The notes below the pieces were generated by a model. It did no database searches. It saw only the letters and a list, made by a program, of their open reading frames with translations, and was not told where the DNA came from. A stretch of 63,459 bases of DNA, the filler included, from Octopus bimaculoides (lineage: Eukaryota): NCBI RefSeq assembly GCF_001194135.2. It is 8 parts of 8 records of this genome, joined end to end, with 100 filler letters (N's around TTAATTAATTAA, not from the genome) between each part and the next. Parts side by side here need not be neighbours in the genome. Positions count along the whole stretch, not along the records: positions 1 to 16,734 come from NC_068994.1; positions 16,835 to 36,231 come from NC_068984.1; positions 36,332 to 38,715 come from NW_026374850.1; positions 38,816 to 41,543 come from NC_068989.1; positions 41,644 to 44,763 come from NW_026326656.1; positions 44,864 to 60,028 come from NC_068992.1; positions 60,129 to 62,290 come from NW_026331658.1; 1 more part is not named here. One strand, 5' to 3'. The translations under genes were made by a program, and so were the position numbers. The stretch's first letter is position 1; each line of letters starts with the position of its first letter. Shown piece after piece: positions 16,658 to 60,722 of this stretch.

Positions 16658-16734
16658 TTTCTAACGACGGAATACCCGGAGCATGGACATGCTAGACTAT
16701 CAGCTGGGGTATCCCAGAAACAGGTGTAAGACTT
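16658..16734 (+). ncRNA. Type I hammerhead ribozyme-like motif, degenerate core
   Basis: CTAACGA (16661-67; G5A variant), stem II ATACCC/GGGTAT (16672-77/16707-12) plus GG/CC, GAAA 16717-20, stem III ACAGGTGT, GTA triplet 16726-28, weak stem I TTT/AGA. Confidence 0.55.
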
Positions 16735-16834
16735 NNNNNNNNNNNNNNNNNNNNNNNNNNNNNNNNNNNNNNNNNNNNTTAATTAATTAANNNNNNNNNN
16801 NNNNNNNNNNNNNNNNNNNNNNNNNNNNNNNNNN

Positions 16835-16882
<48 letters not shown>

Positions 16883-17227
16883 CATACGACGAGCTTCTTT
16901 CAGTTTCTGTATACCAAATTCCCATACCAAATCAAGGTGATACGCAGTGAAGCTGAACCCCAGACCTGGTGGTTGGGAGACGCAGTCATTAGTTATTAGA
17001 TGCGTGTCGCATAGAGCTTGCGATTTCATAAAAGCAAATGCTGCCAAAAACATAAAGAAATGAAAGTATATTGCCCAAAGTTTTATGAATATCAGATGCT
17101 ATGTCCATTTTAGAAAATTATAGCATGAAAGAAAGACATTAAGTGTTCTTTTCTTCCTTCATATGCTAGTTATTAATTTAATAACTGAATTCAACGTACA
17201 CTACTCTTTTTCTACAATATTTATCGT

Positions 17228-17945
17228 TAAGATGGCGAGCTGGCAAAATCATGAGAGAACCGGAATTTGCGAGATTTGTTCCAACACGTTATATTCTGAA
17301 TTCAAACCCCGACTTTATCTTTCTCCCTTTCGGGGTTGATATAGCAAAGTACCAGCTGATGGGGTCAATGGTATCGAGTAAACACCTCCCCTAAAACGAA
17401 ATGGCCTTGTGCCTAAAAAAGAAATCTTTGTTTCTGTTATCAACCAAGAATTTTGAGATAGTTTGATAATCTGATATCCTTGCTTGTGAGAAACAATAAA
17501 TTACAACGGCTTCACATTTTCTACCAAGGCCAACATTTCGGGTGGGAGGAAGTCAATAACATCGACGCCGGTACTCAACTGGTATTATTTTATCGACCTC
17601 GAAAAGATGAAAAGGCCGACCAAGGTGGAATTTGAACTCACAAAGTAAAGATGGACGAAATGCCGCTAAGCATTTTGCCCGGCGTGCTAACGATTCTGTT
17701 AGCTCACCGCCTCGAGACTATAAATAATATCCTCTCTACTATAGGCACAAGGCCTGAAATTTTAGGAGAGGGGGCTAGTCGATTACATCGACCCCTGCGC
17801 TTAACTGGTGCTTATTTCATTGGCCTCGAAAGGATGAAAAGCGAAGTCGTTCTCGACCGAATTTGAACTCAGAATGTAAAGACGAAAGAAATACCGCTCA
17901 GCATTTTGTCCGGCATGCTAACGATTCTACCAGCTCGCCACCTTG
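17228..17945. mobile_element. Cluster of three family A SINEs (17228-17420 +, 17515-17715 -, 17735-17945 -)
   Basis: The minus-strand copies read GAATTTGAACTCA...CTAACGATTCT..CAGCTCGCC, the reverse complement of the family A head. Confidence 0.85.
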
Positions 17946-18731
17946 AGAAAATAAATAAAACCGGAAGACTGAAAATAGCGTTTGCACAATTCACAGAAAA
18001 TAGCTAACATGAGTGGCAACAAGCGATGGGATTACAGAGTATTTCATTAATTATATGTTGAAACTCGTGATTCTAGAACTGATTTGTCGCATAGGTAAAA
18101 GTTTACATCTCTTAAAGATGGCGATTGCTGTAAGGCAAAAGGTAATCTCCCCTTAAACTGAATGTGTGACAACGTTGAAGCGCAGTTGATTCTGAAGCAA
18201 TGCAAATAGAATTGAATCAAATCCAGTTCACTAAGCGAATCCTAATGTTTCTGCCTACTTGACTGTTCAATAACATCTCTTAATATAACAAGTTTTATAA
18301 GTGTGTAGAGAGAGAAGTATGTGTACGTGCGCGAGCACGTGGGTGTGTGTGCGTATGTGTATGAGTGTATGTGGGCGAGCACGTGTGTACGTGTATGTAA
18401 TACACGTAATAGAATCTATTAGTTTATAATGTGAATCCCAGTGACTCATTCTCTCCGTCATTACATACATACATATATATATGTATATAAATATATATAC
18501 ATACACATATATATATACATATATATATATATACTTATATACATATACATACATATATACATATATATACATATCTATATATACATATGTATACATATAT
18601 ATATATATATATACNNNNNNNNNNNNNNNNNNNNNNNNNNNNNNNNNNNNNNNNNNNNNNNNNNNNNNNNNNNNNNNNNNNNNNNNNNNNNNNNNNNNNN
18701 NNNNNNNNNNNNNNNNNNNNNNNNNNNNNNN

Positions 18732-18783
<52 letters not shown>

Positions 18784-19829
18784 TTATATACATATGCATA
18801 CATATATATATATACATATATATACTTACATATATACATATATATACATACATATATATGCAGACACACACACACGCACGCACACTCACACATGTACACA
18901 CACACACACATACATAATATCTTTACTTTGTCTCTCCTTCAGTGCAATTCGATACACGCGAGCAATGTTAAGTTAACACACAGTAAAAGATCACTGAAGA
19001 TCACATTCGAGGAAAATAATGATATGAGATTTCTAAACAGCTAAGGTGTTCCTTGCTTACTATTTTTTTAATCTGAAGTAAGATAAAGAGTTTTTATGGT
19101 AATTCTAATACTCGTAAGAAACATAAAACGATAAGTGGATAATATTGACGAATGAGAGGAAATGTGATGAATCTTATTATAAATCGGATTTATAATTCCT
19201 TCCTCATATAAAAAAAAAATCTTATATATTCAGCAGCAGTTATGGCAAGCCTGCAAGATCAAATTTGATCCAAATAACGAATAACGTCATTTTTAGATGA
19301 TGTCAAGGGAATAAAATCGATATTATTAAACAAGTTGCTCAAAGCTTACGGTTATTGTTAATAGGTCACACGAAAATAAATTCATTTCCGGTTGCTTGTT
19401 TTCATGTTTGTATGAGCTATAGTAGAATAGTAATTATTTCTAGTCGATCAAATATTAAATTATTATAAATGATGAGATATGATGTATTTAAAAACAATTT
19501 TCAATCGCCATCAAATTCAATTGGCAAATTAAATTAAAAGTCACATAAGCCTCTGAAACTGTGTTACTAGGTTCAGTTTTCAACAATACCAAGCATTTCT
19601 ATCTTAAAGTTATCTTTTGAAATGTTATTTTCATTTTCAAGCATGCATAAAAACCTATAGTCGCAGGTATAACTTTAATACTTGTTTCTATCTTCAATAG
19701 TCACAAAGTTCTATTTTCTATTTGGTGAGGAAATCGGAATACTATAACACTGGAATTGAAATCGAATCCCCAACTCAAGGTGCCGGCAGATTATTTCGTG
19801 TTTGTACACTGTAATATATTGGTGTTATT

Positions 19830-21954: not shown

Positions 21955-22111
21955 GGGATAATTCACGAAGAGACAACAGACGAAGACAGGTAGTGTAGAC
22001 AACAAATGAATGTATTAGTATAACGCGCTCGGAAATAGAGAAAGTCTTTAACGTTTCGAGCCTACGCTCTTCAACAGAAAAGAACACACAAAGAAACAAG
22101 GAGAGAAAAAA
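21955..22111 (-). mobile_element. ~150-bp repeat with a hammerhead-like motif (family H2)
   Basis: Minus strand 22082-22044: CTTTT-CTGTTGA-A-GAGC-GTAG-GCTC-GAAAC-GTT-AAAGAC, then ~90 nt and a (TA)n tract. Confidence 0.75.
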
Positions 22112-22524
22112 ATGTGTGTCGTGGTCAGCGGAAGTACGCCGTTTAAGAAGTACTCCGTAAGAACGTCGTGTGCTCAGTTTATTTAAGCTGGTCCAGTGAC
22201 CTGTTACACAAGACTTTCGATGGCATGTAGCCGCCGCTTCTGACAAGATAGAGTGGGCTCATTCTGACTTGTGAGAAGAACCGGTTGCACGTGGGAGTAA
22301 TTCCAGAGAAGCAGACCATTGCACCTGTTTCAATGACCAATGTGCATGTATACTTGTGTTTTGATAGATACTTACAAGAATATGACAAGGCAAAACAACC
22401 GTAGAAACGTGACTGTTTTTCACATGATTAATGTTATCAGTAAATAGCACAGTGGTTCTATTTACCAAAACAGAGAAATGATGCGACCCAATAATATAGT
22501 AAACAATGCTTACCATATGTAGAC

Positions 22525-22586
<62 letters not shown>

Positions 22587-23489
22587 ACATTTTGGAGCCA
22601 GGTCGCCAAATTCTTGTGTAATCTCCCTATGTAACACTGCTTAAACTATCTTATTCTCGGCTGTGTCATCAGAAATATTGATTTTTACATTACTACATAA
22701 TCTATCTCTGAAAACGTTGACCAATATTACATTTAAAGCACCTTATTAAAGTTGATGTCAATTATCTAACGGAATATGCTGATGAGCTAACAAAGGAAAC
22801 TGTAGATGATCGCTCGAGTTATTAAAAATCAGCGCTGGCCGTGGCCTTTATAACAACAACCAATGTGCTATAAACACATGACTATAGGTTCATAGGAGAG
22901 GAAAACGAGATCGAATGACATGTCTATCTCTATAGATAGTATTAGATGTGTAGGTAAATCCAGCCGGGAAATGAAACAGAGTTCTGAATTAAGCTCACTG
23001 AGTGATTCTCTCTGTTTCAACAGCTATCAACATTGTCATGCAAAATATTATTTATCAGGAGACTTATAAAATAGACAACTGAGTTTACCGTAATATGTTT
23101 GGTACATATTTTACTGAGTCAGAAGGAATGAAAATGTGTTCAAATCCTACCGAAGTACGATTCAAACAGTGCCTAGCTTTGCATATTAGCATTTATCTCT
23201 CTGTGCGACATCGTTAAAATAAACTGTAACTTGAAATATATCCAGTCTGGTGCACAACCGGTTCTGATGTATCAACGTCCAGGAGTGCATAATTTTATGA
23301 ATCCCCAAAATGAAAAGACGTCCAAGAGATGAAAGAACACTACAAGATTGTTATAGGAGTTGATTGTTAGAGACATGCTATCTGCAATGATCTGAATTTA
23401 TTTTATTTTGATGCATAATTCTTTCAGGTTTAAAGTACTATTAAATGGTTTCGAATGTCTCGTAATGATCGCGAATACAATCGGCCGAA

Positions 23490-23760
23490 ATGGGATTTTA
23501 CCGTAGGATATCTTGAATAAGCCTACTCGACAGTGTGCATAGCTCGGAGACAAGAAACTTTCTCCAAATTGAGCCCCTAATTTTCCACTTTAAGATGTCA
23601 CAGCTCCGGCGCGATGGACATGTGATTAGAATGCCACAGGAAAGAATCGCAAGACGGATTCGTCAAACCGGACTATCAAGCAAGAAACCTAGGGGTTGAC
23701 CAAAAGAAATGATTGAATAATATCCATAGTCTCACGTTGGTCACGATAGCAAATCTAGCC
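23490..23760 (+). mobile_element. RTE-clade LINE remnant, C-terminal end of the ORF
   Basis: MGFYRRIS*ISLLDSVHSSETRNFLQIEPLIFHFKMSQLRRDGHVIRMPQERIARRI...KKPRG*P matches the RTE motif QLRWxGHVxRMPxxRxxRRxL...RPRGRP; in-frame stops. Confidence 0.85.
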
Positions 23761-25874
23761 GGAAAGTCTAATAACAGTTGCTCCTGATTGGAGGGTGTGC
23801 CTGAAAATTTTATCCCTACGGTCCTCCTAGGAATAGTGGGCGTAGAAGATTGCTTACTTGCTTGCTTGCTTGTTTGCTGGATGGATGGATGGATGGAGTA
23901 TATTTAATTTATCTTCATAATGTGTATGTAGAGTGTAAGCCGCTAAAAGGCATTGAATCTAATCATGGACCAAATGGAAACACCCTATACATACACATTA
24001 GCAATACTACTAACACGTGAATATATTTTTTTCAGAATAATTATGTGAATACTTATGTCGTNNNNNNNNNNNNNNNNNNNNNNNNNNNNNNNNNNNNNNN
24101 NNNNNNNNNNNNNNNNNNNNNNNNNNNNNNNNNNNNNNNNNNNNNNNNNNNNNNNNNNNNNNNNNNNNNNNNNNNNNNNNNNNNNNNNNNNNNNNNNNNN
24201 NNNNNNNNNNNNNNNNNNNNNNNNNNNNNNNNTATATATATATATATATATATATATTCTCTGTAAAAACTTTCTAGCTCTGTAAAAATTTTGCTGCCTA
24301 CTCCAGACAGAATACATATTCTATGTCCAAGAGAAAATTATTTAAAATCTGACTGTTAAACCAGCGCAATCTGTTTATTAATTACATTGAAAGAAATTTT
24401 GTAGTTTCTAATAAAATCCAATCGTTTTAGGAAAGGACTATTCCTTTAACTGGGTAATGTAAAATATTTCACAGAATCAATTGCTATAAACGCAAAACCT
24501 AATGCTGTGAACTAATCAGTTTAGATTTAGAAACTATTTTCTGCTTTATAATTAACTCTGCGAGATCACTACGGCCTAATGTATTTACCGGTTTTAGTCT
24601 TCACAATCCTAATCTTCAAACTTAAATTCTTCAGAACTCAGGTAGATCTTTATTTCTATTGTCCTATTTTATTTTACTCTATTTTTTTTCCACTCTTTTC
24701 TGTATTACTCGAAATTTTATTGTTTTTGATTCTGTTTGCACACGACCAGGCAATTATCTTGTGTCTTTTTCTAGAAGGAAATCAAGATGTGTTTTATTAT
24801 TTCTGCTTTGGACACTAAGCTTTGATTAAATTAGATATAAATCATTTATGGCGTAGAATCACTTTGTCAATGTAATCTCTTGTCTTGTGAGCACGGTTCT
24901 CTCAGTAATGATATTTGATCTTCCAAAAGGGAAAAGAAGATTAAGACTCACTTGATCACGTGTTGTTTTGTGACAATCAGAAAAATGTACTTGAAAACCA
25001 ACTTTTACTTTAAAATGACAAGAAAGATATCAAAGGAAAACCTCAATATTAAACACAGTTTAATGAAACGTTTCACATCTATAAGGATATACCTTTAGAT
25101 ATGCCTAAAGTTATCGAAGTTTTGCATGCGAATTGTTAATCCACCAGCGGCAAAATCGAATAAACTTGAGAGACACCATAGTTAAATCCATGTCTCAAAT
25201 TTATTTTTCATTTAAGTAATATTCAGATTCCCATCTAATTTCCCTATGGAAGAGTTGTTATGCATTCAATTTTATCATGGAAATTCAAATCTATATAATA
25301 AAACGAAAATCATGATTCTTAAAATATTTTCCACTTACTGGTGGTGTGGCCGATGAGAATTCATCTCTATAATTATCAGAAATATCTATTTAATAATTAT
25401 CTTTAGCCACTCTTAAACAATCAGGAATTATCTTTACCAAGTTCTATAATTTGGAGATATTTGTCTGAACGCCTTGAGGAGTTTAGACAAACAAATCAAC
25501 TCTAGTACTTATTTTTAAAAGAATGTACTAATAATAAATTTTCTTATGGGATGAATGGATATAGCTTGTATTTTGATATTTTCTCTTTCCATATTATTCT
25601 GGATTTGCTATTTATTCATTTATTTAAATTAAATTTTATTGCATTATGATTATAAACATAAACAATAAGTTATTATTATTATTATATTTAAAAATTATTT
25701 ACCCCTTTCAGATAACTCAATTACCTCTCCATTTTCTCCTTATTCTTTAAATATATAAATATATGAACCACGGTTTATATTGTTACCTTATAGTTGAATT
25801 TTCTATAGGTTGGTGACTCACCAGTATTTTCATTGGATTTATGATCCCTTAATGAGGTTTACTACCTTTACTTG

Positions 25875-25919
<45 letters not shown>

Positions 25920-25923
<4 letters not shown>

Positions 25924-26065
25924 GTTTCCGCCAACCAAATTAACTCACAAGACATTAGTCAGCCTGGGGCTATAGTAGAAGATACTTGCCGAAGGTGCCA
26001 CGCACTGGAACTAAGCCCGAACCCACATAATTGCCAAGCTAACTTCTTAACCATACAGTCATGTC
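25920..26065 (-). mobile_element. SINE family C head
   Basis: Reverse complement of GTTCCAGTGCGTGGCACCTTCGGCAAGTATCTTCTACTATAGCCCC. Confidence 0.75.
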
Positions 26066-39935: not shown

Positions 39936-40095
39936 CTGTCTTCTTTTAGTTTCCGTCTACCAAATCCACTCAAAAGGCTTTGGTTGGCCCGATGCTATAG
40001 TAGAAGACACTTGCCCAAGGTGCCACACAGTGGGACTGAACCCGGAACCAAGTGGTTGGTAAGCAAGTTACTTATCACACAGCCACCATTGCGCT
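39726..40095 (-). mobile_element. SINE family C, full length (head, internal (TG)n, tail)
   Basis: Head GGCTGTGTGATAAGTAACTTGC..CCGGGTTCAGTCCCACTG, then (TG)n, then tail CATCGCTTGACAACCG...GGCGGTGCTCTAGCATGGCC. Confidence 0.88.
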
Positions 40096-40603
40096 TATAA
40101 ATAAGATCTAAATAAAATGTTATATTTTTATGATTGAATTTTTATTAGGAATTCTGTTAAAACATTGTTTAGACTAGAACAGAAGTAAAACCAATTTCAT
40201 TGCGCATGAAGTTTAACAACAGAATCTCGTATGGTCCCCTAAGGGTCATTGGGCCCCGGTCGTGAACCACTGGTTTAGTCGAACAAATCAACCCCAGTAC
40301 ATATCGTTTTTCCGGTTTCATACTTATTATATCATTTTCTTAAGCCGAACTGCAAAGATACGGGAATGTAAATAAACCAACACTCGTTATCAAGGGTTGC
40401 AGGGCGACAAGCACAGACACAAATATTTATTACGACAGGTATCAACATATTTTCCGTCTCTCACCTTCGCTTACAAGGCATTTGTCAGTCCGGAGCTTCA
40501 ATACACAGCACTTGCTCAAGGTGCCACGCAATGGGATCGAACCGAAAATGATATGACTGCCAAGAAAGTTTCGTAACCACATAACCATGCGTATGCTTAT
40601 ACA

Positions 40604-40980
40604 TTCCGTGGAACTACGTCGGTTACGACGACGAGGGTTCCAGTTGATCCGATCAACGGAACAGCCTGCTCGTGAAATTAAACGTGCAAGTGGCTGAGTA
40701 CTCCACAGACACATGTACCCTTAATGTAGTCCTTGGGGGAGATTCAGCGTGACACAGAGTGTGACAAGGCTGGCGCCTTTGAAATACAGGTACAAGAGAA
40801 ACAGGTAGAAAGAGGGAGAGAAAGTTGTGGTGAAAGAGTACAGCAGGGTTCACCACCAACCCCTGCCGGAGCTTTAGGTGTTTTCACTTAATAAACATTC
40901 ACAACGTTCAGTCTGGGAATCGAAACCGCGATCCTATGACCGCGAATCCGCTGCCCTAACCACTGGGCTATTGCACCTCC
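40604..40980 (-). mobile_element. SINE family D, near full length
   Basis: Reverse complement of the 39433 head at 40840-40980, continuing ~240 bp to the tail GGATCAACTGGAACCCTCGTCGTCGTAACCGAC. Confidence 0.85.
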
Positions 40981-41271
40981 ACTGCTTAAATATATATTTA
41001 TGGAGTGACGAAAGCAGTCGAACATCGCTGTGGGATATGGAATAATATTTTCATAATTGATACAGGATCATTGCGGAAACTTAGGTAAGTCAAACACGCA
41101 CTTGATTCCATACTTGGTGATAAGCCAATCAATAAGTTTCACGCTGATATGTTCAATATCCATAGTTCAATATGGCTGACTTTTAGTAAAAGATAAATTT
41201 TGTTAACCCCCAAAATTGTGATTGTCTTACTGGTTCGAATCCAGTCTGGAAACATATACCGCTGTAACGAC

Positions 41272-41412
41272 CAGTGGTTTGAAATTTTGGCACAATGTCA
41301 GCAATTTCGGTGGGTGGGGAGAGGACAAGTCGATTACGTCGACCTCAGTACGCAACTGGTACTTATTTTATCAACCACGAAAGGATGAAAGGCAAAGTCA
41401 ACCTCGGTGGTA
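41272..41412 (-). mobile_element. SINE family A, 3' half
   Basis: GGTACTTATTTTATCAACC..GAAAGGATGAAAGGCAAAGTCAACCTCGG. Confidence 0.8.
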
Positions 41413-42989
41413 TATTCGGCGTGTAAATATCACTCAAGTCATCTGCCGCCTCAAAAGCTTCGTACTTGCCGTGCCAACCAACGTAAGTCAATGACACACA
41501 ACTTCACTCATTCACTCTATCTCTCTTTCTCACCCTCTTTCTCNNNNNNNNNNNNNNNNNNNNNNNNNNNNNNNNNNNNNNNNNNNNTTAATTAATTAAN
41601 NNNNNNNNNNNNNNNNNNNNNNNNNNNNNNNNNNNNNNNNNNNGACATCCCCTTCAGGGGGAAATGTTGTGATCTTGGTCGCTTATATGCTATGGAAATT
41701 GGGTAACCAGTCTTATCAGTCATAAGGTTCAAGGAAATCTTTTTAAAAAAATGCAACAGCTGATCAAACGGACGATATATATATTTCGGGTAACTTTTAG
41801 TGGTGCAGTTCTATATTTAAGAAATGAGGAATTATGTACAGCTGGGGGGTACATTAACTGAAATGTTGTGTTAACAAGAAACAAGGTGAGGACAAATATC
41901 TGTCAAATGTAAATAATGTAACTTTTAGTGGTGTCCACTCTTTAGCAAGTCCAGTTCTCTGATTTGAGAACTTAATACCTGTAGGTGTTTTATTCCCTTC
42001 TCATCCCCTCCTCAAGAATTTTGGAAACCCTAGAAAAGCAGTTGACATCNNNNNNNNNNNNNNNNNATTAAATTTTAATGCCATTAAAAATAATTGGCTT
42101 CACCAGAAAGTTAATGATTTATATCTCTTCTGGAAGTGTGGTGAAGCTGGGGAGGAATATGAAGTCGGTCTTGGCAGCAAATAAACTCAGGAACTGGAGA
42201 GTTGGTGTTAAATGTTCAACTGACATCTTCACATGCACAATGAGTTATAATAGAAGTCCATTGATAGGAAGTGAGAGAAACCAGTTGAAAGGTTGCAGAT
42301 CATCCTGTTCTTAGTACCAAGCCCAGGACACCAAACTCACAACAGCCTTGTCCACTTAGAGCCAGAAAATTTACTGATTAGTGTGTGGTTAGCTCAAAGT
42401 ACTGAGCTTCATTTTTTCATCATCATCATCATCATNNNNNNNNNNNNNNNNNNNNNNNNNNNNNNNNNNNNNNNNNNNNNNNNNNNNNNNNNNNNNNNNN
42501 NNNNNNNNNNNNNNNNNNNNNNNNNNNNNNNNNNNNNNNNNNNNNNNNNNNNNNNNNNNNNNNNNNNNNNNNNNNNNNNNNNNNNNNNNNNNNNNNNNNN
42601 NNNNNNNNNNNNNNNNNNNNNNNNNNNNNNNNNNNNNNNNNNNNNNNNNNNNNNNNNNNNNNNNNNNNNNNNNNNNNNNNNNNNNNNNNNNNNNNNNNNN
42701 NNNNNNNNNNNNNNNNNNNNNNNNNNNNNNNNNNNNNNNNNNNNNNNNNNNNNNNNNNNNNNNNNNNNNNNNNNNNNNNNNNNNNNNNNNNNNNNNNNNN
42801 NNNNNNNNNNNNNNCTAGAGTAGAAAAGAATATAATCAACTTGCACCCTGCCCTTCAAAACATCTGGCCCTGGACCAACGTTTGAAACTGTTATGCTCAT
42901 CATTTTCATTAACATTTTTTTATCAATTTCATTTTCGTTATTCTCTTCCTCATCACTTTGTTAAATACAATTAATCATTCTTTTTAAAG

Positions 42990-43990: not shown

Positions 43991-44423
43991 GTGTCACCAT
44001 ATGTCAAATGCAGGATGATACAGCATAACAACAGCATTGAAGAGGAAAAGAAAAATGTCCGTCCTCCACCACTATTTGAGGTAGTGAGCTGTGTTCACAA
44101 AATTGTTAACAGCAGACAAAATGCCTTGTGGTATTTCTTCTGGTTCCTTATATTCTGAGTTCAAATTCTAATGAGGTTGGCTTTGTCTTTCATTTGCAGT
44201 GTCAGTAATAATAAGTACCGGGTGAGCCCTGGNNNNNNNNNNTGTCTTTCATTTGCAGTGTCAGTAATAATAAGTACCGGGTGAGCCCTGGAGGTGGTGG
44301 GGTGTCAACGTAATTGTTTAACTGTCTTCTCTAAAATTGATGGCCTTCTACTATGACTCTTTGTCACTATACAACATTCCCACATGAAGCAGCCATTTGT
44401 TAATAATCATTTTGCTTTTGTAG

Positions 44424-44647
44424 ATATGCCAATTTGGATGGTACTAACAGACAAACAGTAATGAAAGAGAACGTACCATTCATTCACTCACTTGCAGTGT
44501 TTGAAGACTGGATCTACTGGACAGACTTGAATCACCTGAGCATAGAAAAAGCACATAAATTCACTGGACGTAACCATACTATTCTGCGGAATATGACTCA
44601 CCAACCAAGTAACCTTGTTGTGTTTCATTCATTACGACAAAAGCAAT
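44424..44647 (+). CDS. LRP1/LRP2-like YWTD propeller exon B
   Basis: TAG acceptor 44421-23, GTTAGT donor 44648; the phase-2 join with exon A gives GA|A; YANLDGTNRQTVMKENVPFIHSLAVFEDWIYWTDLNHLSIEKAHKFTGRNHTILRNMTHQPSNLVVFHSLRQKQ. Confidence 0.95.
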
Positions 44648-44863
44648 GTTAGTGTCTTATGGTATTTCCATGTTGCATGTTAATATGTTTTATCTTTCTT
44701 TTATCATATACTAGTTTCAGTCATTAGACTGTGGCCATGCTGGGGCACAACCTTGAAGAATTTNNNNNNNNNNNNNNNNNNNNNNNNNNNNNNNNNNNNN
44801 NNNNNNNTTAATTAATTAANNNNNNNNNNNNNNNNNNNNNNNNNNNNNNNNNNNNNNNNNNNN

Positions 44864-47050: not shown

Positions 47051-47385
47051 TTTTTTACATGGTACAAATTTGGTATTTCATAATTTTGTGTTCAAATCCA
47101 GCTAGAGCTGGCTTTAGTAAAGGTGACTTTGGGCCTCATCATATGAATGGACTTCTGTTTGATGCTGACTCACCATCTTATGTCTCCTTGTCATGCCTAG
47201 ATCTCTTCTCTATTCCAAAATCTTTGTTACATCTCCAGAAGACACTCCAAGGGATGAAAGTGATTTTATTTCCTTCGTACAACCATGTAAATGTTTAGAA
47301 CAAGGAGATTCTTTTGAAATTTACTTGTTACATATTGCTGAAAAACTTTCCAAAAGACTGAGTATTTTTTGTGTCTTTATTGTAG

Positions 47386-47590
47386 GTGGGCCCCAGGAGA
47401 ATGGTCAGAGTGCAGTTTGACCTGTGGAGAAGGACAAATGACACGGCAAGTGGAATGCAAGCAGAAATATTCTAAAACATTTTTCAAAAGAGTTTCTGCA
47501 TCAGCATGCCTGAACCAAACTCGTTTGATAACTGTGAAAAAATGTCAGAATAAACCCTGTTCACAATGGGAAATTAAAGAATGGTCAAAG
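47386..47590 (+). CDS. THSD4: ADAMTS-like protein (THSD4/ADAMTSL4/6 type), TSP1 exon 1 of 6 in the window
   Basis: AG|G acceptor, GTAATT donor; WAPGEWSECSLTCGEGQMTRQVECKQ...CQNKPCSQWEIKEWSK; phase 2 start, phase 0 end. Confidence 0.93.
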
Positions 47591-47862
47591 GTAATTTATA
47601 AGTAATCTTTTAAGAGCTATTTGTTGACTAACACCAAAATATAAATGTATTCTGATGGTATTAAATCATATTAGCAAGATAAAAGTTTGAGAAGGTCAAT
47701 GAAACTAAAATCTGGCCAGGCCATACATTCTTCAAAAACATATCCTGCATGTAGTTTTTTTGTCATATGAACTAGCCAGACAATTTTACGTTGTCCTTTA
47801 TTTTGTAAAGTTGTGTTTATATGTGCAACAATGTTTTGATCCGACATTTTCTATAATTCCAG

Positions 47863-48033
47863 TGTTCAGTTGAGTGTGGTCTTGGACAACGTAGTCGAAA
47901 AGTGACATGTGTGTCAGCTGATGGCAGAGTAATTCCTGACTATGAATGCCGTGAAACCAAACCTTCAGTTTCAGAAGTTTGCAATATGGGCTCCTGCGCC
48001 AAATCTTGGTTTTTCACAGAATGGTCAAAAGAG
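47863..48033 (+). CDS. THSD4: THSD4-like TSP1 exon 2
   Basis: 171 nt, CAG|...|GTGAGA; CSVECGLGQRSRKVTCVSADGRVIPDYECRETKPSVSEVCNMGSCAKSWFFTEWSKE, close to the vertebrate THSD4 stretch CxMGPCAKSWFLTEWSERC as recalled. Not called in the ORF track. Confidence 0.95.
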
Positions 48034-48639
48034 GTGAGAACTTTCCACTTTCTTCTCTGACAAAGATATTTTGCATATATCACACTCACATCTCCAGTTA
48101 CTCAACACCAGAGCTGGCTCAAGGCACCAGCAACTTGGGCAGTCACTTGAAGTGCCATGTGCTAGTGGGTGCCAAGGAGAGCATGACAAAGACATGGAAA
48201 TTTCCATGACTGTCAGCTTGTACACACCGATGTTCAGCCAGCAACCCTAGGACCAGCCCTGCCCAACACACTCCACTCACCACACTTCACTTACTCATTT
48301 TGTACTCCACTCACCCAGTACACATGCCACTCACTCACACACAGTACTCACCCACACATTGTTCACTCACTCAACATACACTCTACTCCCTTACCACTCA
48401 TGCCGTATATATGTATAAATGCCTTTTAATTGCTATGTTTAGATGAAGGCATAATGCCCACAATCTCCTTTACAAGTTCTCACAGACTGGTAAAATTTCT
48501 GCCCTTAATGTCCTCAGACATTTTTAAGACAATCTCTGTGGGAAAGATATGAACAACAATGGAATTCCAAATGGTCAACACTTAGAGAAAGAAGAACTAG
48601 GCATAGGGATTAGTATAGGGCCTTGAGAGGTCGATCACT

Positions 48640-49100
48640 TTAAGGGTGATGAATGGAGATGGGATGTAATGTATCTATCAGAGATCCAAGAAAAGCCATT
48701 CCTTCTGTCAATGCTGTTGTTATCCTTCAGCTTATGGAATATGTACTCATGCATTGCTTTTGGCTGATATGCCGCCTGCTTTACCTTCAAACTTCTGTTC
48801 TGATAATCCAGTCAAGCCTCCTTTGAATCGCATGAGACAGTTGTATTCTAAGAGTACCGGCTCAATAGTTCTTCTCCAGCTCTGAAGATGCTTTTGCTCT
48901 CACATTTGAGCATGTATTCCTTTCTTCACTGTTCATTTGTGACATTCAAAGGCTGTTTGGACTGACTTTATGCCTCTACCACCATCATTTCATCTCACGT
49001 AGATCCTATTGGTGTCACTGTTGATGTAGAAATTGCCAATGGTTATCAGTACCTTTCTGGTTTTGATGTCTAGGCTGCATATCTCATCAAGTGTCCATCA
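48640..49100 (-). mobile_element. Non-LTR retrotransposon remnant (R4/Dong- or RTEX-like RT C-terminal region)
   Basis: WTLDEICSLDIKTRKVLITIGNFYINSDTNRIYVR*NDGGRGIKSVQ matches WTxxELxxLDRKTRKxLT...SDxDRLYxPRxxGGRG. Confidence 0.8.
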
Positions 49101-49204
49101 AGTGTGTATAAAGAATAGATTTGTATTTAAGTTGTTGTGCGTGTACGTATGTGTGAGTGTGCGTTTGAGAGAGAGAGAGAAAGTGTGTGTGTGTGTATGT
49201 TTGT

Positions 49205-49568
49205 GTGTGTGGTTGACTAAATTTCTGTCTCCGTGTCTATCTGGTTGTACCAATGACAGTTACAAAATAGTTTCTATGCTTGGATCAAGGGAGGTAACTT
49301 AAATTTGAGAGTTTTACGTGTTCTAGGATTAACAGGCGTGTGTGTGTATGTGTGTGTGTGCGTGTGCATGTGTGTGTGTGTGTGTGTGTGCTTGTTTGTG
49401 TGTGAGCGTGTTTGTGTGTGAGCGTGTGTGTGTGGTTGCCTAAACATCTGTCCATTTGTCTCCTTGTCTACCTGGCTGTACCTGTGACAGTTACAGAACA
49501 GTTTCTATGATTGGAGCAAGGGAGATGACTTTAATTTGAGATTTTTATGCGATTTAGGATTAACAGGA

Positions 49569-49616
<48 letters not shown>

Positions 49617-49805
49617 GTGTGTGAGCGTGTTTGTGTGTGAGCGTGTGTGTGTGGTTGCCTAAACCTCTGTCCATTTGTCCCCTTGTCTACCTGGTTGTAC
49701 CTGTGACAGTTACAGAACAGTTTCTATGATCGGAGCAAGGAAGATGACTTTAATTTGAGATTTTTATGTGATTTAGGATTAACAGGAATGTGTGTGTGTG
49801 TGTGT
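49205..49805. repeat. Three-copy ~220-bp tandem repeat with embedded (GT)n
   Basis: Unit anchor GGTTG at 49211, 49434 and 49653; each unit ends TTTAGGATTAACAGG or a close variant. Confidence 0.92.
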
Positions 49806-50466
49806 GTGCGTTTATCTGTTTAGTATCTACTGTTGGAAAAAAATCGTAATTTCCCTGAAATAAAGATAGACCCAAGAATATTACACCATTATCAGGAAAA
49901 AGGTAAAATTCAGAGAAACAAAAGCTCGACTAAACTTAACTTGCAACTTTGCAGTTGTTTCAGCTGGTGTCTAGAGCCATCATCATGGTTTGCCTTTTTA
50001 TTTTCTTTCTTGATGCTGTTGATATGTCTGAAAGAGAAATAAAAAAAAGTTGATATTTTGTACATATCCTGTAAGTTTAGGGTTAGGTTATCTTCCATGT
50101 GTGGCCCACTAAAAGATGTGTTCACAAAGACCTGGTGTATCCTGTACAATCAGGACATTCAGTGGTTTTGTAGTTAGAGGTTTTCACTTTGCTAAGGAAA
50201 TCTAATAAAATGTAATCACTTTCATTGTTTTATCAATCATTGGACTGTGACTATACTGGGGCATCATTTTCAAGAGTTCAGTCAACCTCATTAATCTCAC
50301 ATAATTCTCTCCTTTATGGGAGAAGGGTCTTACAAAGCTCATGGATGCTGTCTCTTCACTTTTCAGTAATCAATTTAACAAATTGAAGTCTTTTAATTGC
50401 AGCACTCTATCTTCTACGCTTCTGTAGTATTATTACTTATACGTCTTTTATTTCTGTATTGTTTAG

Positions 50467-50640
50467 TGTTCCTCTTCCTGTGGTCATGGAGTCCTTCGAC
50501 GTCAAGTTCACTGTTCAGCTGATGATGGTAGCAACTTGGAAGACAGCAAATGTAAATTAAGTGAGAAACCAAAGTCAGAGAAGTCTTGTAAGAGTGACCA
50601 GCCTTGTGGTGGTTTATGGTTCACAGGGCCATGGTCTGAG
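50467..50640 (+). CDS. THSD4: THSD4-like TSP1 exon 3
   Basis: 174 nt, TAG|...|GTCAGT; CSSSCGHGVLRRQVHCSADDGSNLEDSKCKLSEKPKSEKSCKSDQPCGGLWFTGPWSE. Confidence 0.95.
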
Positions 50641-50729
50641 GTCAGTATTCAAAATTTACTAATAATACCAATAATAATAATAATAATGATGATAATAATA
50701 ATAATAATAATAATGATAATAATAATAAT

Positions 50730-51260
50730 TCTTTCTTTATTGGCCACCATGGCTGAACACAAAACATAGAGGACGATACACAGGTGAGGGACAGTGAGGT
50801 TTAAATGTGTAAGCAGTCAACAAACACAACGATTAACAAAGAGATTAAAACAACAATATGCTTCCCCAATAGGAGGGAGTTCCACCATAAGGTGACCAAA
50901 AAGACTTCATGCACTTTGGACCCCTTAACACCAATGGCTCCATGAAAGGTACCCTCTCTTCTCAGTTCCATCCAGCCTGCAGGTGCACACTTAGCGTAGG
51001 CCTATTCACGTGGGCCATTCTTGCCACATTCACCCACCTTTCAACGAACTCCCTCTCCAGCCTCACTTTCCTTTTCAGGGGGAACCTGAAAAAGTTAATG
51101 AGGCCTTGGCCAAAGAGGAGGGTACCCGTCTTCAACCCTTTCAATCACATCCACCACACAACCTCTTTTGCCATAGCCACCAGACAGAGAAAAATTGCCC
51201 TCCCTTCTCAGCCAAAGGAAGGAGGTGGGGCGATCAGTAATAATCCTTTCTGCTATGGTT
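50730..51260 (-). mobile_element. Probable L1/Tx1-like LINE 3' end
   Basis: Minus strand LFGQGLINFFRFPLKRKVRLEREFVERWVNVARM, then AATAAA (50741-50736) directly followed by a (TTA)n tract; clade assignment is by recollection only. Confidence 0.5.
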
Positions 51261-51421
51261 ATAAAACAGGTATAAAACAATCTCAACTAACCAACATGGA
51301 AGAAAAAACATAGAAATTGTAAAAAGTTTATTGAGAATTAAGAAAGTAAACTAACTTCCAGAATTATTTGTGATTTTCCTTCATGTTACAATTTTTGGAG
51401 AATTTTATTGTTCTGTTGCAG

Positions 51422-51607
51422 TGCTCTGCCACTTGTGGTCAAGCCTTTAAGATACGCAGTGCTGCATGTGTCAAAAAGTTGCATTCTACATCATTTGTTG
51501 TGGTTAGTCCAAATAACTGCGTGAAGAAAGACAAACCAGCAACAAAAGAACCCTGTCTTACAATGCCAGCATGTCCTGCCCAATGGCATATGACAGAATG
51601 GACACAG
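51422..51607 (+). CDS. THSD4: THSD4-like TSP1 exon 4
   Basis: 186 nt, CAG|...|GTATTA; CSATCGQAFKIRSAACVKKLHSTSFVVVSPNNCVKKDKPATKEPCLTMPACPAQWHMTEWTQ. Confidence 0.95.
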
Positions 51608-51689
51608 GTATTACGGCTTTCCACTCATTTTATCCTCATCTCTTCTTCACCTCCATATTCTCATATCATCTCTCTCTCTCTCTCTCTCT

Positions 51690-51724
<35 letters not shown>

Positions 51725-52366
51725 NNNNNNNNNNNNNNNNNNNNNNNNNNNNNNNNNNNNNNNNNNNNNNNNNNNNNNNNNNNNNNNNNNNNNNNNNNNN
51801 NNNNNNNNNNNNNNNNNNNNNNNNNNNNNNNNNNNNNNNNNNNNNNNNNNNNNNNNNNNNNNNNNNNNNNNNNNNNNNNNNNNNNNNNNNNNNNNNNNNN
51901 NNNNNNNNNNNNNNNNNNNNNNNNNNNNNNNNNNNNNNNNNNNNNNNNNNNNNNNNNNNNNNNNNNNNNNNNNNNNNNNNNNNNNNNNNNNNNNNNNNNN
52001 NNNNNNNNNNNNNNNNNNNNNNNNNNNNNNNNNNNNNNNNNNNNNNNNNNNNNNNNNNNNNNNNNNNNNNNNNNNNNNNNNNNNNNNNNNNNNNNNNNNN
52101 NNNNNNNNNNNNNNNNNNNNNNNNNNNNNNNNNNNNNNNNNNNNNNNNNNNNNNNNNNNNNNNNNNNNNNNNNNNNNNNNNNNNNNNNNNNNNNNNNNNN
52201 NNNNNNNNNNNNNNNNNNNNNNNNNNNNNNNNNNNNNNNNNNNNNNNNNNNNNNNNNNNNNNNNNNNNNNNNNNTATATATATAATCATATATATATATA
52301 ATTATATATATATATAATCGTTAATTACTTCTCATTATCAAATGATTTTGCTGTGTTTCATTCCAG

Positions 52367-52520
52367 TGCTCAGCTAGTTGTGGTACAGGTTCTAAAACAC
52401 GAGAAGTGAAATGCATGGACAGCCACTTGAGACACAGTACATTGTGCAACCCTGATAAACGACCTATCACAAGACAGAGCTGTGATTCTCATTCCTGCCA
52501 CCAGAAACCACTAAACACAG
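52367..52520 (+). CDS. THSD4: THSD4-like TSP1 exon 5
   Basis: 154 nt, CAG|...|GTAAAT; CSASCGTGSKTREVKCMDSHLRHSTLCNPDKRPITRQSCDSHSCHQKPLNT plus G (phase 1). Not called in the ORF track. Confidence 0.95.
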
Positions 52521-52795
52521 GTAAATTACTCACCTCTAATTAAGAGAGTATTATAAATATCTATTGTCACATTCTTAAATACATAAACATTAGATATATC
52601 ATTAGATGTATCTTTAATGACTCAGTCACAAATGACTCTTTACAGGGTCACCAGATAGGAGACCTGGCCTGAATGCTTTCTACGGGGTAGAGTTGTTGTT
52701 AAACTGGATGAAAGATTAACTCTACAAAGATATAAGACATGACTTAATGATGCTCCAACTTTTCACAGAATTAATAATGTTTTCTACTCTTTCAG

Positions 52796-52935
52796 ATCCA
52801 TCATGCCAGGATCAAATAAAGTTGTGTCGCCTTGTTGTACAGGCTCGTCTCTGTTCTTACAAGTACTACCAAAGGAAATGTTGTGAAACTTGCTACAAAC
52901 ATCGTGTACATAACAAACACCATCATTCTTCTTAA
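52796..52935 (+). CDS. THSD4: THSD4-like terminal exon, PLAC domain
   Basis: CAG acceptor; G|AT completes Asp; DPSCQDQIKLCRLVVQARLCSYKYYQRKCCETCYKHRVHNKHHHSS*. VVQARLCxYxYY is the PLAC signature of ADAMTSL4 and THSD4. Confidence 0.96.
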
Positions 52936-54606: not shown

Positions 54607-55137
54607 NNNNNNNNNNNNNNNNNNNNNNNNNNNNNNNNNNNNNNNNNNNNNNNNNNNNNNNNNNNNNNNNNNNNNNNNNNNNNNNNNNNNNNNNNNNNNN
54701 NNNNNNNNNNNNNNNNNNNNNNNNNNNNNNNNNNNNNNNNNNNNNNNNNNNNNNNNNNNNNNNNNNNNNNNNNNNNNNNNNNNNNNNNNNNNNNNNNNNN
54801 NNNNNNNNNNNNNNNNNNNNNNNNNNNNNNNNNNNNNNNNNNNNNNNNNNNNNNNNNNNNNNNNNNNNNNNNNNNCCTTATGAGGTTTTTTTCACGCTAG
54901 CTACTTGATAAATTCTTGTAAAAGAATTCGTCCTATTATTGAAATTTAAATATATTACCAGAATATATTCAGTGCTGAATTTATTCTGAGTAAGAGGCAT
55001 ATTTACCGAGATGCAATTCGAAATTCCCGCCACTTACATAGGAAAATAGCGATGAACAGTCGTCCATATACTATGCTGGATACATGGTATTCGTTTGGTA
55101 TGTTGATTCACTGTTTATTTCTATTTTTCTGGACCAT

Positions 55138-55198
55138 ATTATACTGACGAGTAGAAGTTGTATAATACTACAATAACTACGAAATCATGATCTATAAT
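55138..55198 (+). ncRNA. Type I hammerhead ribozyme, canonical core and three stems
   Basis: Stem I ATTATA/TATAAT (55138-43/55193-98); CTGACGA 55144-50; stem II GTAG/CTAC plus inner TTGTA/TACAA; GAAA 55181-84; palindromic stem III ATCATGAT; predicted cleavage after AUC at 55192. Confidence 0.88.
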
Positions 55199-57574
55199 TT
55201 AGTTCGTTTTTAAGGGGTTGTCTTTGAGAGTTGCATTTCCTCGCATTCGGTAAAAAATGTGCTTTTATAGTAGTCTGACCTTNNNNNNNNNNNNNNNNNN
55301 NNNNNNNNNNNNNNNNNNNNNNNNNNNNNNNNNNNNNNNNNNNNNNNNNNNNNNNNNNNNNNNNNNNNNNNNNNNNNNNNNNNNNNNNNNNNNNNNNNNN
55401 NNNNNNNNNNNNNNNNNNNNNNNNNNNNNNNNNNNNNNNNNNNNNNNTATATAGCAATAAGAAAATGGAGGGGAATATGTGGCACTCATCAACTTCCAGG
55501 CACTGTACTCTGTTAATTAACCTGTTTATTTTCCAACCAAAAGGACAATAAAGACAATATACAAACACATATGACACACTATGTCATATCAACAATTAAA
55601 AATTCAAAAATACATCTAGTAAACCGAAGAAGGGACGTATATGGGGAAAGTCACAGAAGATCCTGTAATAATCATTTTCTATCGCAGCCCCATGGCCAAT
55701 GATCAATTTGTGTAGTTGTAATGTCAAATATTGGTTGAACATAAAATATATAATAGCATTGTATACTGACACAGTGAATAAAAAAGATCTCTTCTAATAT
55801 ATTCTTTGGTAAATATTTCAGTAGAGGTCACCAAGAGTATTCAGATATCCAGAGTTCAAATCTTACCAGAAGTATCAATGTCTAGTATTTAGATAATGTA
55901 CCATTGTCTTTTTTCAACACTCACCACCCACCACATACATACACACTTCCAAAGATGCCCACCTCAATCTTTTTGTTAGAAAGTCAAATCATACGATGTC
56001 ATTCATCAAATAAATAAATAAATAAATAAATAAAACCTCAGTGAAATTTGTGCTCAATAAATGACTGAAAATATTTGACTTTGTAGGTTTATCAAACCCA
56101 TCTTTAAAATGTCAGCAGTTTGATCATATCTATGGTCACTGACCTGACTGATTATCTCCTTTTTTGTCAGCACTCAGTAGGTTTCTTAGAGTAGAATTGT
56201 AAGATTCTTCTCTAATATATCATTATAATGTATTCACATGTTAGCTTGTGGAAATCTTCTAGAAATATTTCATTCACTGACTGTCAGAGCTAAGTTACTA
56301 GGAGCCTCGATTAAGCTAATTCACTACGAAGAATCATAATTCTACCCAAGGGTAAATTATTTCGTCTGTTAAATATTTAAAGAAGCAGGATAATGGATTT
56401 CGTTGGTTGGTGAGGAAATTATATTTACTATCAACTGAGTGCACTTACTTTCTGAAGAAAGTCAAAACCATCTGAAGAAACTGAGATAGCACAAGACCAT
56501 TGTATTTTGAGGAATTTAATTTTCTAAGTTCAAACCATGTGAAAGTAAATTTTATATTTTTCTTTCCTCCAATTTATGTTTTTACCAGTAAAACAAACCA
56601 TAGTACCTCCACAACAGCTCTCAAGTCCGATAATTAAATATTTTCTATCGTACAAGTGTTCCTTACAATACAGAACTTAATTATTTCTCCGCATTAATTA
56701 TATTTTCCTAGCATTTCTCTTTTCTCAGCTGCTTTTGTGTCAGGTTTTCTAAAGAAAACTTGCTTCAATTCAGGAAATTGTTTTGAGTTTGATTCAGAAT
56801 AATATTATTAAAATATTTTCATGATTTCTTTACATTTGTTTATTCGTTCTTGTAAAATAAATCCATAATTTAGTAAAAAAAAAATAATAATAGTGTTCAT
56901 TGTTGTATATGTTAAAATATTATTTCAAAACAGAGTTTGTATTTATCAAAAGTGCAATAGTTACTATATATTGTAATGATATTTTGTGCTTTCAGCAAAT
57001 TACTTCATTGTGTTAGATAATTTCATTCCTGAATATAATATAAGACATACATGAGTATATTGCAACCATGTTTATGTTGAATTCTGGAAACTTGCAGTAA
57101 AAGAAAATCCAGAATGGACTCGACCTACGTTTCTTAGAAGAAAAGAAATTTTGGAAGTCTTGAAATAATATTTTGTATTTTTCATAATTATTTTACATTT
57201 CTGTATTCAAATTGTACCATTGTCTGATTTATTTTACATCCTTCTGGCTTCTGGAAAGTAAAAACCATTTACATTGTGAGGTTGATTTAATCAACTGTTC
57301 CAAAAATATCTGCTCTTATGTCTCACTTAGAACTATCATTATCATGAAGCAAATCTTACCGTGTGCAGATTTTCCTGAAAATCTACTACATATGTGGGAA
57401 ATTCTGTCTGTGGGTATGTTTGTGGAGTTGTTAGCTAACTCCTCCTACATCATTGTATCAATTTTGATGAAACTTGACACATGAGTAGAACTCATGTCTG
57501 GGAACCTCATGACATACTCAGATTGTTGAAAAAAAATCGATAATAGGGCCCCTGGAAGGGATCCTTATATATAT

Positions 57575-57690
57575 CTAATATATTTCAGTTTTTCCTTGGG
57601 GCTGGCCAGATTGGAGCAATGTCGAGTATAACCAGCTGAAATTGCAAAGATAATCTGGAACTCGACTGAGGAATGAAAACATGTTGTGTA
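57575..57690 (+). repeat. Unclassified dispersed repeat, inverted homolog of 59140-59250
   Basis: Shared TTGGG..CCAGAT..CTGAAA.TG.AA.GA..ATCTGG.AC.TCGACTGAGGAA.GAA. Confidence 0.65.
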
Positions 57691-57801
57691 AAGTACTATC
57701 TGTCTGAGGTCCATGTTGTGACTTGACAAACAGTACAAAACTCCAGTAGACACAATATCTTCAATCAACAACCTCACAATATTGTATACTGTGCGACATT
57801 T

Positions 57802-57839
<38 letters not shown>

Positions 57840-58989: not shown

Positions 58990-59039
<50 letters not shown>

Positions 59040-59044
<5 letters not shown>

Positions 59045-59260
59045 ATGGGACAAAAACGCAGTAGAGTACAATAAAACATTTGGACAGATAGACGATACAA
59101 AGGCGGACAGGAGAAACAACAATTAGAAGGACAGGACGGGTCATTTGTGGCCTTCTTTCCTCAGTCAAGGTACCAGATGTCATTACAGTTTCAGGTTTGA
59201 GACAGTTCGATCTGGTTGTCCCCAAAAGAGTCTAAGCTAAGAGCATTAGACTTTATGTAA
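59040..59260 (-). repeat. Unclassified dispersed repeat; part of it (59040-59130) recurs at 59765-59850
   Basis: ACAATAAAACATTTGGA.AGATAGAC.ATACAA.GGCGGACAGGAGA.ACAACAATTAGAA occurs twice. Confidence 0.7.
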
Positions 59261-59879
59261 GAAAGCTCGCGAATGTGTACGGCAGTAAAGACAAAAAAAA
59301 CGGAGAACATGGTACACAATTGCAAATACAAAGTAACAAGTATATAACAACAGGTGTCTTTCGACTGAGAACGAATCAAATTGAGCTGGCGTGTATGAAG
59401 TGAAAGCCTGAAGACAGGAACATAGGAGATGGACATAAGAGGTGTTGGCGGTCGGCAGTCAGGCCAAGAAAGAAAGATTAGGGCTGGCCGGACACCGGTC
59501 ATGTGGAAGGAGAGAGCGGGATTGAAGGATTAGAAAGAAAAATCAGATAAAAAAAAAGAATAGGTACAGGGGAGATAAACGATGTGGAAAAGTGGGAGTT
59601 CCAAGAAATGTGAGAAAGAGAGGAGGAGCGAGAAAAAGAAAAGTGGGAGAAAATATGAAGGGGACTAAACGATAACGTAAGAATCGTACAAAATTTACAT
59701 ACTCAAGGGGAGCACAAGTATGTACGTACGCCGCTATATGTATATATAAATATTTTTAAAAAATGAACAAAAACGTTATAGAGGACAATAAAACATTTGG
59801 ATAGATAGACAATACAATGGCGGACAGGAGACACAACAATTAGAATGACAGAGAAGCAAAAATTAAAGAACGGGTCTGT

Positions 59880-60028
59880 TTGGCAAGTAACTTGCTTACT
59901 AACCACCGACTCTAGGTTCAGTCTCACTGCGTGGCACGCTGAGCAAGTGTTTTCTACTATAGTTGCAGGCTGACCAAAACTTTGTGGATGGATTTGGTAG
60001 ACGGAAACTGAAAGAAGCCCGTCGTATG
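59880..60028 (+). mobile_element. SINE family C head
   Basis: AAGTAACTTGCTTACTAACCAC...GGTTCAGTCTCACTGCGTGGCAC...GGTAGACGGAAACTGAAAGAAGCCCGTCGTAT. Confidence 0.85.
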
Positions 60029-60634
60029 NNNNNNNNNNNNNNNNNNNNNNNNNNNNNNNNNNNNNNNNNNNNTTAATTAATTAANNNNNNNNNNNNNNNN
60101 NNNNNNNNNNNNNNNNNNNNNNNNNNNNATATATATATAATATATATATATATATGATTTAATATTTCGTTTAAGCATTGCAAGACTAATAACCTGATGC
60201 AGAACTCAATATACGTATATTATGTTAGAGTATAGAGCGGTAATAAGAAAAAAGAGATGACGTAGGAAAAACAAATGTTATATTGTCAACTTAATTAGCT
60301 TGCAGCTGTTTCTGCTATACTGTGCAGTGGACTCACATTATATATACATGTGTGTATGTGTGTACATCTACGTGTACAACATGATAATAGTTTTCAAATC
60401 TTTGATTATATATCTTGATCTTGACCACAACGGAAGTGGCCCCTGAGCTAAAAAGAAAGTGTATTTTAAAATTGGTAAATAGTTTAAAACTATGCAATAC
60501 CAGTTTCCGTAAGAGCGAAATTGTAGGCCGTATCTCAGAATTGGTGACTGTATTGAGGGTTTCGAGCGAATCCCCAACCAGTTTTCACAGGATCTCCTAA
60601 CAATGATGTAAATTTCATATAATCAAGATCTCCT

Positions 60635-60722
60635 TGGCCTGAAGAGTAGCTTGCAGTCTACTCCCTCGTTTGGATAATTTACTACTTCCGAGGTTCCGCT
60701 AGCTATGAAACATATGTAGCCA
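60635..60722 (+). ncRNA. Type I hammerhead ribozyme, canonical core, long stem II
   Basis: Stem I TGGC/GCCA; CTGAAGA 60639-45; stem II GTAGCT/AGCTAT plus inner CCTCG/CGAGG; GAAA 60707-10; palindromic stem III ACATATGT; predicted cleavage after GUA at 60718. Confidence 0.85.

Follow-up and report, generated by a model that had tools for sequence, protein, structure and literature searches.

Type I hammerhead motifs with long helix II inserts in Octopus bimaculoides: likely 3' ends of Penelope-like elements

A 63,459-nt stretch of the Octopus bimaculoides genome (RefSeq assembly GCF_001194135.2; eight parts of eight records joined end to end with filler, here called the window) contains four + strand loci, L1 to L4 in order of position, that a first-pass annotation read as one dispersed, retrozyme-like system of type I hammerhead ribozymes with a dimer-ready palindromic helix III. 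Are these loci hammerheads, and which kind of mobile element carries them? The observations to be explained are motifs above chance expectation, two high-copy families (L3 and L4), 5' truncation (L3), inverted junctions, tails ending at TA runs or gaps, and pairing that is kept within families. We consider it likely, with a probability of about 0.7, that L1 to L4 are the 3'-terminal ribozymes of separate families of Penelope-like elements (PLEs), left as short, 5'-truncated and mostly decayed copies at (TA)n runs. According to sections 6 and 11 of PMC8557442, 5' truncation, inverted copies and such tails are hallmarks of PLEs, and (TA)n is the target of the Hydra and Naiad elements.

Motif anatomy and chance expectation

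All four loci lie where they had been annotated, with 16658, 35659, 55138 and 60635 being the stem I starts. GAAA, the A15.1-U16.1 pair and an NUH triplet are present at each of them, and the annotated stem II around an insert of 30-65 nt agrees with the core-to-GAAA distances (Table 1). The CUGANGA core, described for all four, stands for L2, L3 and L4, as does the perfect palindrome, but not for L1, which reads CUAACGA, has one palindrome pair broken and is left with a stem I of three pairs including a G.U. The arrangement of an open helix I and a closed helix II around the core is firm at L3 (6 pairs; 4 + 6 pairs) and L4 (4 pairs; 6 pairs) and marginal at L1 and L2. Position G10.1-C11.1 is occupied by G-C at L3, by G.U at L4 (where it varies in the family), by A-U at L2 and by a pair offset by one base at L1. 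As judged from sequence, three of the four loci belong to the type I hammerhead class.

Searched on both strands with a strict type I descriptor that allows 4-12 nt in the helix III loop and requires no palindrome, the whole window gives three matches, namely L2, L3 and L4, all on the + strand and each with a perfect 8-nt palindromic helix III. Among 1000 local dinucleotide shuffles, 39 contain one loose match, none contains two and none contains a palindromic match. The comparison with dinucleotide shuffles that had been proposed as a check thus shows these three complete motifs in excess over chance. A second descriptor, loosened post hoc to admit L1, returns exactly L1 to L4; one match occurs in 31/500 shuffles (7/500 at a tighter helix II setting) and two in 0/500. 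On this result L1, whose 49-nt helix II region forms 8/9 offset pairs, is probably a decayed hammerhead, and for L1 alone a chance origin is possible at 1-6% per window. G5 is a base of the catalytic core, so L1 is predicted to be catalytically inactive.

L2 has stems I and II of three pairs each around its 65-nt region, with a stem II lacking the closing G-C. Its hammerhead fold is predicted at +8.8 kcal/mol versus a minimum free energy of -8.7 kcal/mol, a gap of about 17 kcal/mol, and in these models L2 is probably weak and decayed. Immediately downstream lies a 5'-truncated fragment of a LINE-type reverse transcriptase (35863-36228, + strand; PF00078, E 4e-11). A tie between L2 and this fragment was rejected, as the fragment begins mid-domain behind a microsatellite.

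Could the four loci be chance matches in AT-rich, repeat-rich DNA? No Rfam hammerhead family matches the window loci among the matches listed (150 of 173), the other Rfam matches being microsatellite-driven miRNA/snoRNA noise, and scans restricted to L3 and L4 at E<=10 give no hammerhead match either, a negative outcome for the window of the Rfam check suggested at first. Whole-motif fold z-scores are unremarkable (-0.84 to +1.87), L1 needs the loosened descriptor and L2 folds poorly. Against this stand the shuffle results of both descriptors and the family-level conservation at L3 and L4 described below. Pattern scans elsewhere returned 2 loci in viral contigs and 90 in metagenome contigs, none like the window loci and none matching the PLE profile; only three of 96 viral or metagenome pattern matches are palindromic, and none combines a helix III pair with a three-pair stem I. 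Chance is thus an extremely improbable explanation of the set, and for L3 and L4 it is already refuted. Long helix II inserts escape Rfam and descriptors with a spacer of 7-17 nt. By eye, one viral contig (L002, about 480-545, - strand) contains a canonical type I hammerhead whose long helix III is a perfect palindrome; it is unrelated to the window.

The dimer-type helix III had been claimed from the palindrome, and predicted energies agree with it: a 2-bp hairpin of the monomer is placed at +2.4 to +4.8 kcal/mol, versus -7.0 to -11.1 kcal/mol for the 8-bp duplex of two copies. Since helix III is predicted to be unstable in the monomer and stable as a duplex, cutting would need two motifs together, and such motifs likely work in the manner of the terminal dimer hammerheads of PLEs. 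BLASTN finds no similarity among L1 to L4. The divergence of sequence under kept pairing, first taken as conserved structure, is therefore a shared grammar and not covariation. All four predicted cut sites lie 6-90 nt before a (TA)n run or a gap, while 16% of window positions lie within 100 nt of such a feature; the (TA)n end is direct at L2 and L4, and at L1 and L3 a gap lies at the end, with TA behind it. Several window gaps (16735-16834 and similar) consist of 44 N, a 12-nt AT palindrome and 44 N, which is an assembly marker and not biology.

Table 1. Positions of the hammerhead motifs, their repeat copies and the PLE remnant in the window (cut sites are predicted).
Feature	Position	Strand	Core	GAAA	Cut after	Core to GAAA (nt)	Remarks
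L1, probable decayed type I hammerhead	16658..16731	+	16661-67	16717	16728	49	G5 to A in core; gap from 16735
L2, type I hammerhead by descriptor match	35659..35748	+	35662-68	35734	35745	65	Intact core, perfect palindrome; (TA)n starts 23 nt past cut site
L3 hammerhead	55138..55198	+	55144-50	55181	55192	30	Best of four; stem I 6 bp, palindromic helix III, AUC triplet
Repeat copy with L3	54946..55282	+					5'-truncated member of high-copy family; flanked by decayed TA-rich tail (5') and by gap with TA behind it (3')
L4 hammerhead	60630..60726	+	60639-45	60707	60718	61	4-bp stem I, palindromic helix III, GUA triplet
Repeat copy with L4	60585..60757	+					Member of second high-copy family; (TA)n terminus 36 nt past cut; 5' limit approximate
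Broken Hydra-type PLE reading frame	2441..3310	+					Reverse transcriptase thumb, linker and start of GIY-YIG endonuclease; cut by (TA)n run

Repeat families at L3 and L4

The multi-copy evidence covers L3 and L4 and comes from public sequencing reads of one organism label. A 403-nt stretch around L3 is fitted by 1289 contigs of one putative DNA run, of which 256, 428, 431 and 174 are 99% or more, 95-99%, 90-95% and less than 90% alike, respectively. Summed read depth, which by the tool's own warning is not copy number, rises from about 22,000-42,000 at 54992-55089 to 215,000 across the motif and 295,000 in the tail, as expected of copies truncated at the 5' end. The 3' tail of the family stops about 95 nt past the cut site. 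Before 55162 and 55222 there are loose ends that match the tail in reverse complement, which points to truncated, inverted copies arranged head to head. The element begins directly behind the TA-rich tail of a separate repeat, which suggests a nested insertion into that tail; the latter repeat (3' end at 54880-54945, + strand) has a much higher copy number, with a summed depth of up to about 1,000,000.

Helix II of L3 consists of 4 bp, a 2x2 internal loop, 6 bp and a 6-nt loop. Within it, a U-A pair becomes U.G or C-G through the variants 55161 T>C and 55170 A>G, which occur together in one contig of run X1. This helix II pair shows a compensatory change, which concerns a single pair and leaves room for selection on the arm. 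Core positions of L3 are free of variants among the rows listed (40 of 100).

L4 belongs to a second family, with 1615 fitting contigs (38, 221, 548 and 808 in the same four classes of likeness). Its helix II has a 6-bp base around a 49-nt insert. Depth is highest over the two halves of the catalytic motif (55,000 and 125,000). In the insert it falls about 5-12-fold, to 10,000; there, the sequence of other copies is related but not the same. In the family, helix I comprises 3 bp, a small internal loop and 4 further bp, which the present copy has lost by three changes. The majority letters at 60630, 60723 and 60725 restore these four additional pairs, so the L4 copy has decayed from a better motif. 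Opposite-strand joints in seven DNA contigs represent inverted copies. One DNA contig skips 60646-60692 (GT..AG), but an intron was rejected, given an extra base, the loss of a helix II strand and no supporting RNA reads.

Of the dispersed system originally described, multi-copy families at L3 and L4 and a PLE-like structure are supported, whereas one single system is not, the loci being unrelated in sequence. L2 and L4 may be distant relatives as far as sequence can tell. By eye, a short ACACCCC-like motif occurs in the L2 insert (35713-35727) and in the inserts of other L4-family copies (seen in loose ends; compare 60659-60677).

Penelope-like elements, retrozymes and host co-option

The PLE coding remnant annotated at 2468-3300 is confirmed with a slightly larger extent (Table 1). 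It has 892 relatives at E<=0.001 and scores 91.6 bits against a profile built from 28 of 151 proteins. The relatives carry the RWK-like, DKT and CxCX5C marks that section 11 of PMC8557442 gives for the Hydra clade, and by eye the remnant is close to the Hydra-1_Obim protein. An inverted repeat (3309-3364) flanks the (TA)n run that truncates it. A second, very decayed Hydra-type reverse transcriptase remnant is probable at 10900-11700 on the + strand (tblastn E 0.034 at 11150-11305; further motifs by eye).

Several points weigh against the assignment of L1 to L4 to PLE 3' ends. Self-cleavage of the intact motifs is a prediction from sequence, and two of the four 'TA' ends are gaps. The PLE remnant contains no hammerhead; it ends at the TA run inside the endonuclease and is unlinked to L1 to L4. 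The link between motif and PLE reading frame that the first-pass annotation had proposed as a check was not found: a Hydra-type hidden Markov model and tblastn detect no PLE coding sequence in the 200-350 nt of sequence present upstream of L1 to L4, these being weak tests with Hydra-type proteins only. Frameshift-tolerant scores upstream of L2 to L4 fall within the shuffle range and that upstream of L1 reaches 16.2 versus a maximum of 13.9 in 40 shuffles, in a test that missed its own endonuclease control. Pfam, word-based homologue and Atlas searches upstream of the four loci give no usable match. The proposed check for compensatory changes in multi-copy families is answered by the one helix II pair at L3. 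At L4, two variants speak against a rigid structure: with 60706 T>G some copies lose the first pair of helix II, and with 60716 G>A, at about 2% of DNA depth, the palindrome is interrupted. The variants at L3 and L4 are those of 40 of 100 and 40 of 68 rows, respectively, which may hide rarer core changes. Moreover, Hydra hammerheads in Files S1, S2 and S7 of PMC8557442 have a helix III loop of 1-3 nt versus the loopless palindromes here, which weakens the clade assignment. The tie between motif and PLE is thus structural and indirect. A likeness, by eye, of frames upstream of L2 and L3 to PLE endonuclease motifs was dropped, being unsupported by any of these searches.

Alternatively, L1 to L4 could be monomers of non-autonomous non-LTR retrozyme families with units of 170-400 nt, tandem sources elsewhere, circular RNA and PLE proteins acting in trans. 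This reading, which we regard as unlikely, overlaps with that of PLE tails, as non-LTR retrozymes have been proposed to derive from PLE ends (10.64898/2026.07.22.740005, as far as consulted). The missing coding link suits it, as does helix I of the L4 family, whose internal loop resembles that of canonical type I motifs. The depth gradient and the inverted tails better fit truncated long elements, and the window contains no hammerhead tandem. RNA evidence comes from three raw runs, of which about 6% each was read; library preparation could lose small circles, and the data are not sensitive for cleavage. Reads of both families do occur (245 and 254 at L3, 141 and 88 at L4; 88-254 per 1.7-1.9 billion letters), but they are few and two-stranded, unlike the abundant circles of mussels in the parts of PMC7229834 consulted. 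Both orientations, together with the continuation of 79-99% of the reads into unlike sequence, indicate that they stem mostly from other copies. In these runs there is no read-end pile-up at the predicted L3 or L4 cut site, nor a clear circle junction at L3 or at L4. Among the runs listed as containing the stretch none is recorded as RNA, which says nothing about expression.

A single back-joint at L3 connects 55282 to 55148 over 39 intervening letters (nine reads with three starts, run X23) and points to a unit of about 174 nt, either in tandem or circular. It appears in one of four runs, the core of the copy entered a second time is damaged, and a tandem in the genome would account for it just as well. 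The retrozyme tandems and circular RNAs suggested at first are thus unsupported, as RNA without cleavage ends or clear circles is joined by the lack of a PLE-frame link and of a tandem here.

If L1 to L4 are PLE ends, two hammerheads on one tandem PLE transcript would pair via the palindrome and cut out a unit RNA (compare the parts of PMC4209133 and PMC6765202 consulted). Judging from the PLE literature, the reverse transcriptase and GIY-YIG endonuclease of the element would then copy this RNA into a TA microsatellite, and premature termination would leave lone 3' ends such as L1 to L4, which would seldom cut.

L3 also lies about 2.2 kb past the stop of an ADAMTS-like gene and in sense with it. 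Exons of this gene span 47342-52935 (+ strand) and encode TSP1_ADAMTS repeats (Pfam on three exons); the last one resembles what we take to be a PLAC domain. It is very unlikely that the host has co-opted any of the motifs, chiefly L3, for instance as a self-cleaving signal for 3'-end formation or decay in this gene. The L3 motif is intact and downstream of the last exon, all four motifs share the + strand (1 in 8 by chance), and a 301-nt contig of run X1, whose RNA status is guessed, is identical to 54900-55200. However, that contig extends 8 nt past the cut site, read ends do not pile up there, helix III is predicted to be unstable as a monomer, and L3 is one ordinary copy among the many of its family.

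Two further observations concern the region of this gene. An isolated exon-like frame of LDL-receptor class B (YWTD) type (44407-44652, + strand; PF00058) lies between small gaps and is apparently foreign to the ADAMTS-like gene; it may belong to a nested gene or to a piece of scaffold placed wrongly. At 49136-49819, units of about 220 nt repeat imperfectly in tandem, with no hammerhead by the descriptors used.

The long helix II arm among known hammerheads

A hammerhead of the octopus has been catalogued before: File S2 of PMC8557442 (Craig et al., 2021) contains a Hydra-clade PLE hammerhead of O. bimaculoides, Hydra-1_Obim, which bears on the open question of cataloguing in the first-pass annotation. 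None of six short motifs of the L3 and L4 families was found in the parts of that supplement searched, where line breaks could hide matches; a Naiad identity of these families thereby gains no support. In Files S1, S2 and S7, Hydra-clade hammerheads resemble the loci here in type I topology, intact core, short helix III, position near the 3' end and (TA)n targets and, by eye, share the G-U...U-A-C-GAAA base of helix II, and a related Hydra-type coding remnant shares this window. The sequences differ, however, and their helix II has a 3-7-bp stem with a 3-10-nt loop instead of 30-65 nt.

In metazoan type I hammerheads, helix III generally has only 1-2 bp, closes a palindromic loop of 2-4 nt and works as a dimer (Cervera and De la Peña, 2014; PMC4209133, as far as consulted), so the 'dimer-ready palindrome' is not new. 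The PLE hammerheads of that study likewise form many divergent families, mostly as single copies and with low in vitro activity, but have a helix II of 4-8 bp; the helix III here is the fuller form of 2 bp + 4 nt and not the minimal one. Non-LTR retrozymes of mussel, coral and axolotl (PMC7229834; 10.64898/2026.07.22.740005) share a type I hammerhead in a non-coding repeat and a 2-bp helix III with a tetraloop, and in the parts consulted are defined by tandem units and abundant circular RNA.

Closer in single features are three groups in the consulted parts of PMC8557442. PLE-X1_cBra of Chara (File S2) has a loopless 8-nt palindrome as here, PLE-X1_sMoe and sTam of Selaginella (File S2) have a loop 2 of about 30-35 nt, and in eight 'HHR_half_core' Naiads, among them families of Octopus vulgaris and Euprymna, 35-50 nt separate the two halves of the core. 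All differ from L1 to L4 in host or sequence, and by eye the octopus Naiad 3' ends are unlike L1 to L4. For cephalopods, the giant squid paper gives 235 Hammerhead_1 loci in the part consulted (PMC6962438). We found no long-armed cephalopod hammerheads in the mostly open literature covered; Repbase, several supplements and subscription papers, which lie outside this scope, may hold such. Both the palindromic helix III and a PLE hammerhead from octopus are known from earlier publications, and a helix II of 30-65 nt is the only unusual feature.

What does the long arm do? It folds on itself and varies more than the core, and is therefore most simply, and likely, a tolerated expansion and not a new catalytic part. 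We consider it quite unlikely that high-copy PLE-derived families of cephalopods carry a selected 30-65-nt arm as a functional module, in which a tertiary or protein contact would tune dimer cleavage. Under such a function some 'ribozyme-less' elements, for instance the 'half-core' Naiads, would carry working long-armed hammerheads, since Rfam and short-spacer descriptors miss this form.

The L3 and L4 families are apparently uncatalogued hammerhead-bearing repeats within the known picture of PLE ends with dimer-type hammerheads. Because motifs with long helix II inserts are missed by Rfam and by descriptors limited to a 7-17-nt spacer, counts of mollusc hammerheads may be too low, and statements that certain PLE clades lack hammerheads may likewise undercount. 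L3 is a tidy natural substrate for comparing monomer and dimer cleavage and for the role of the helix II arm.

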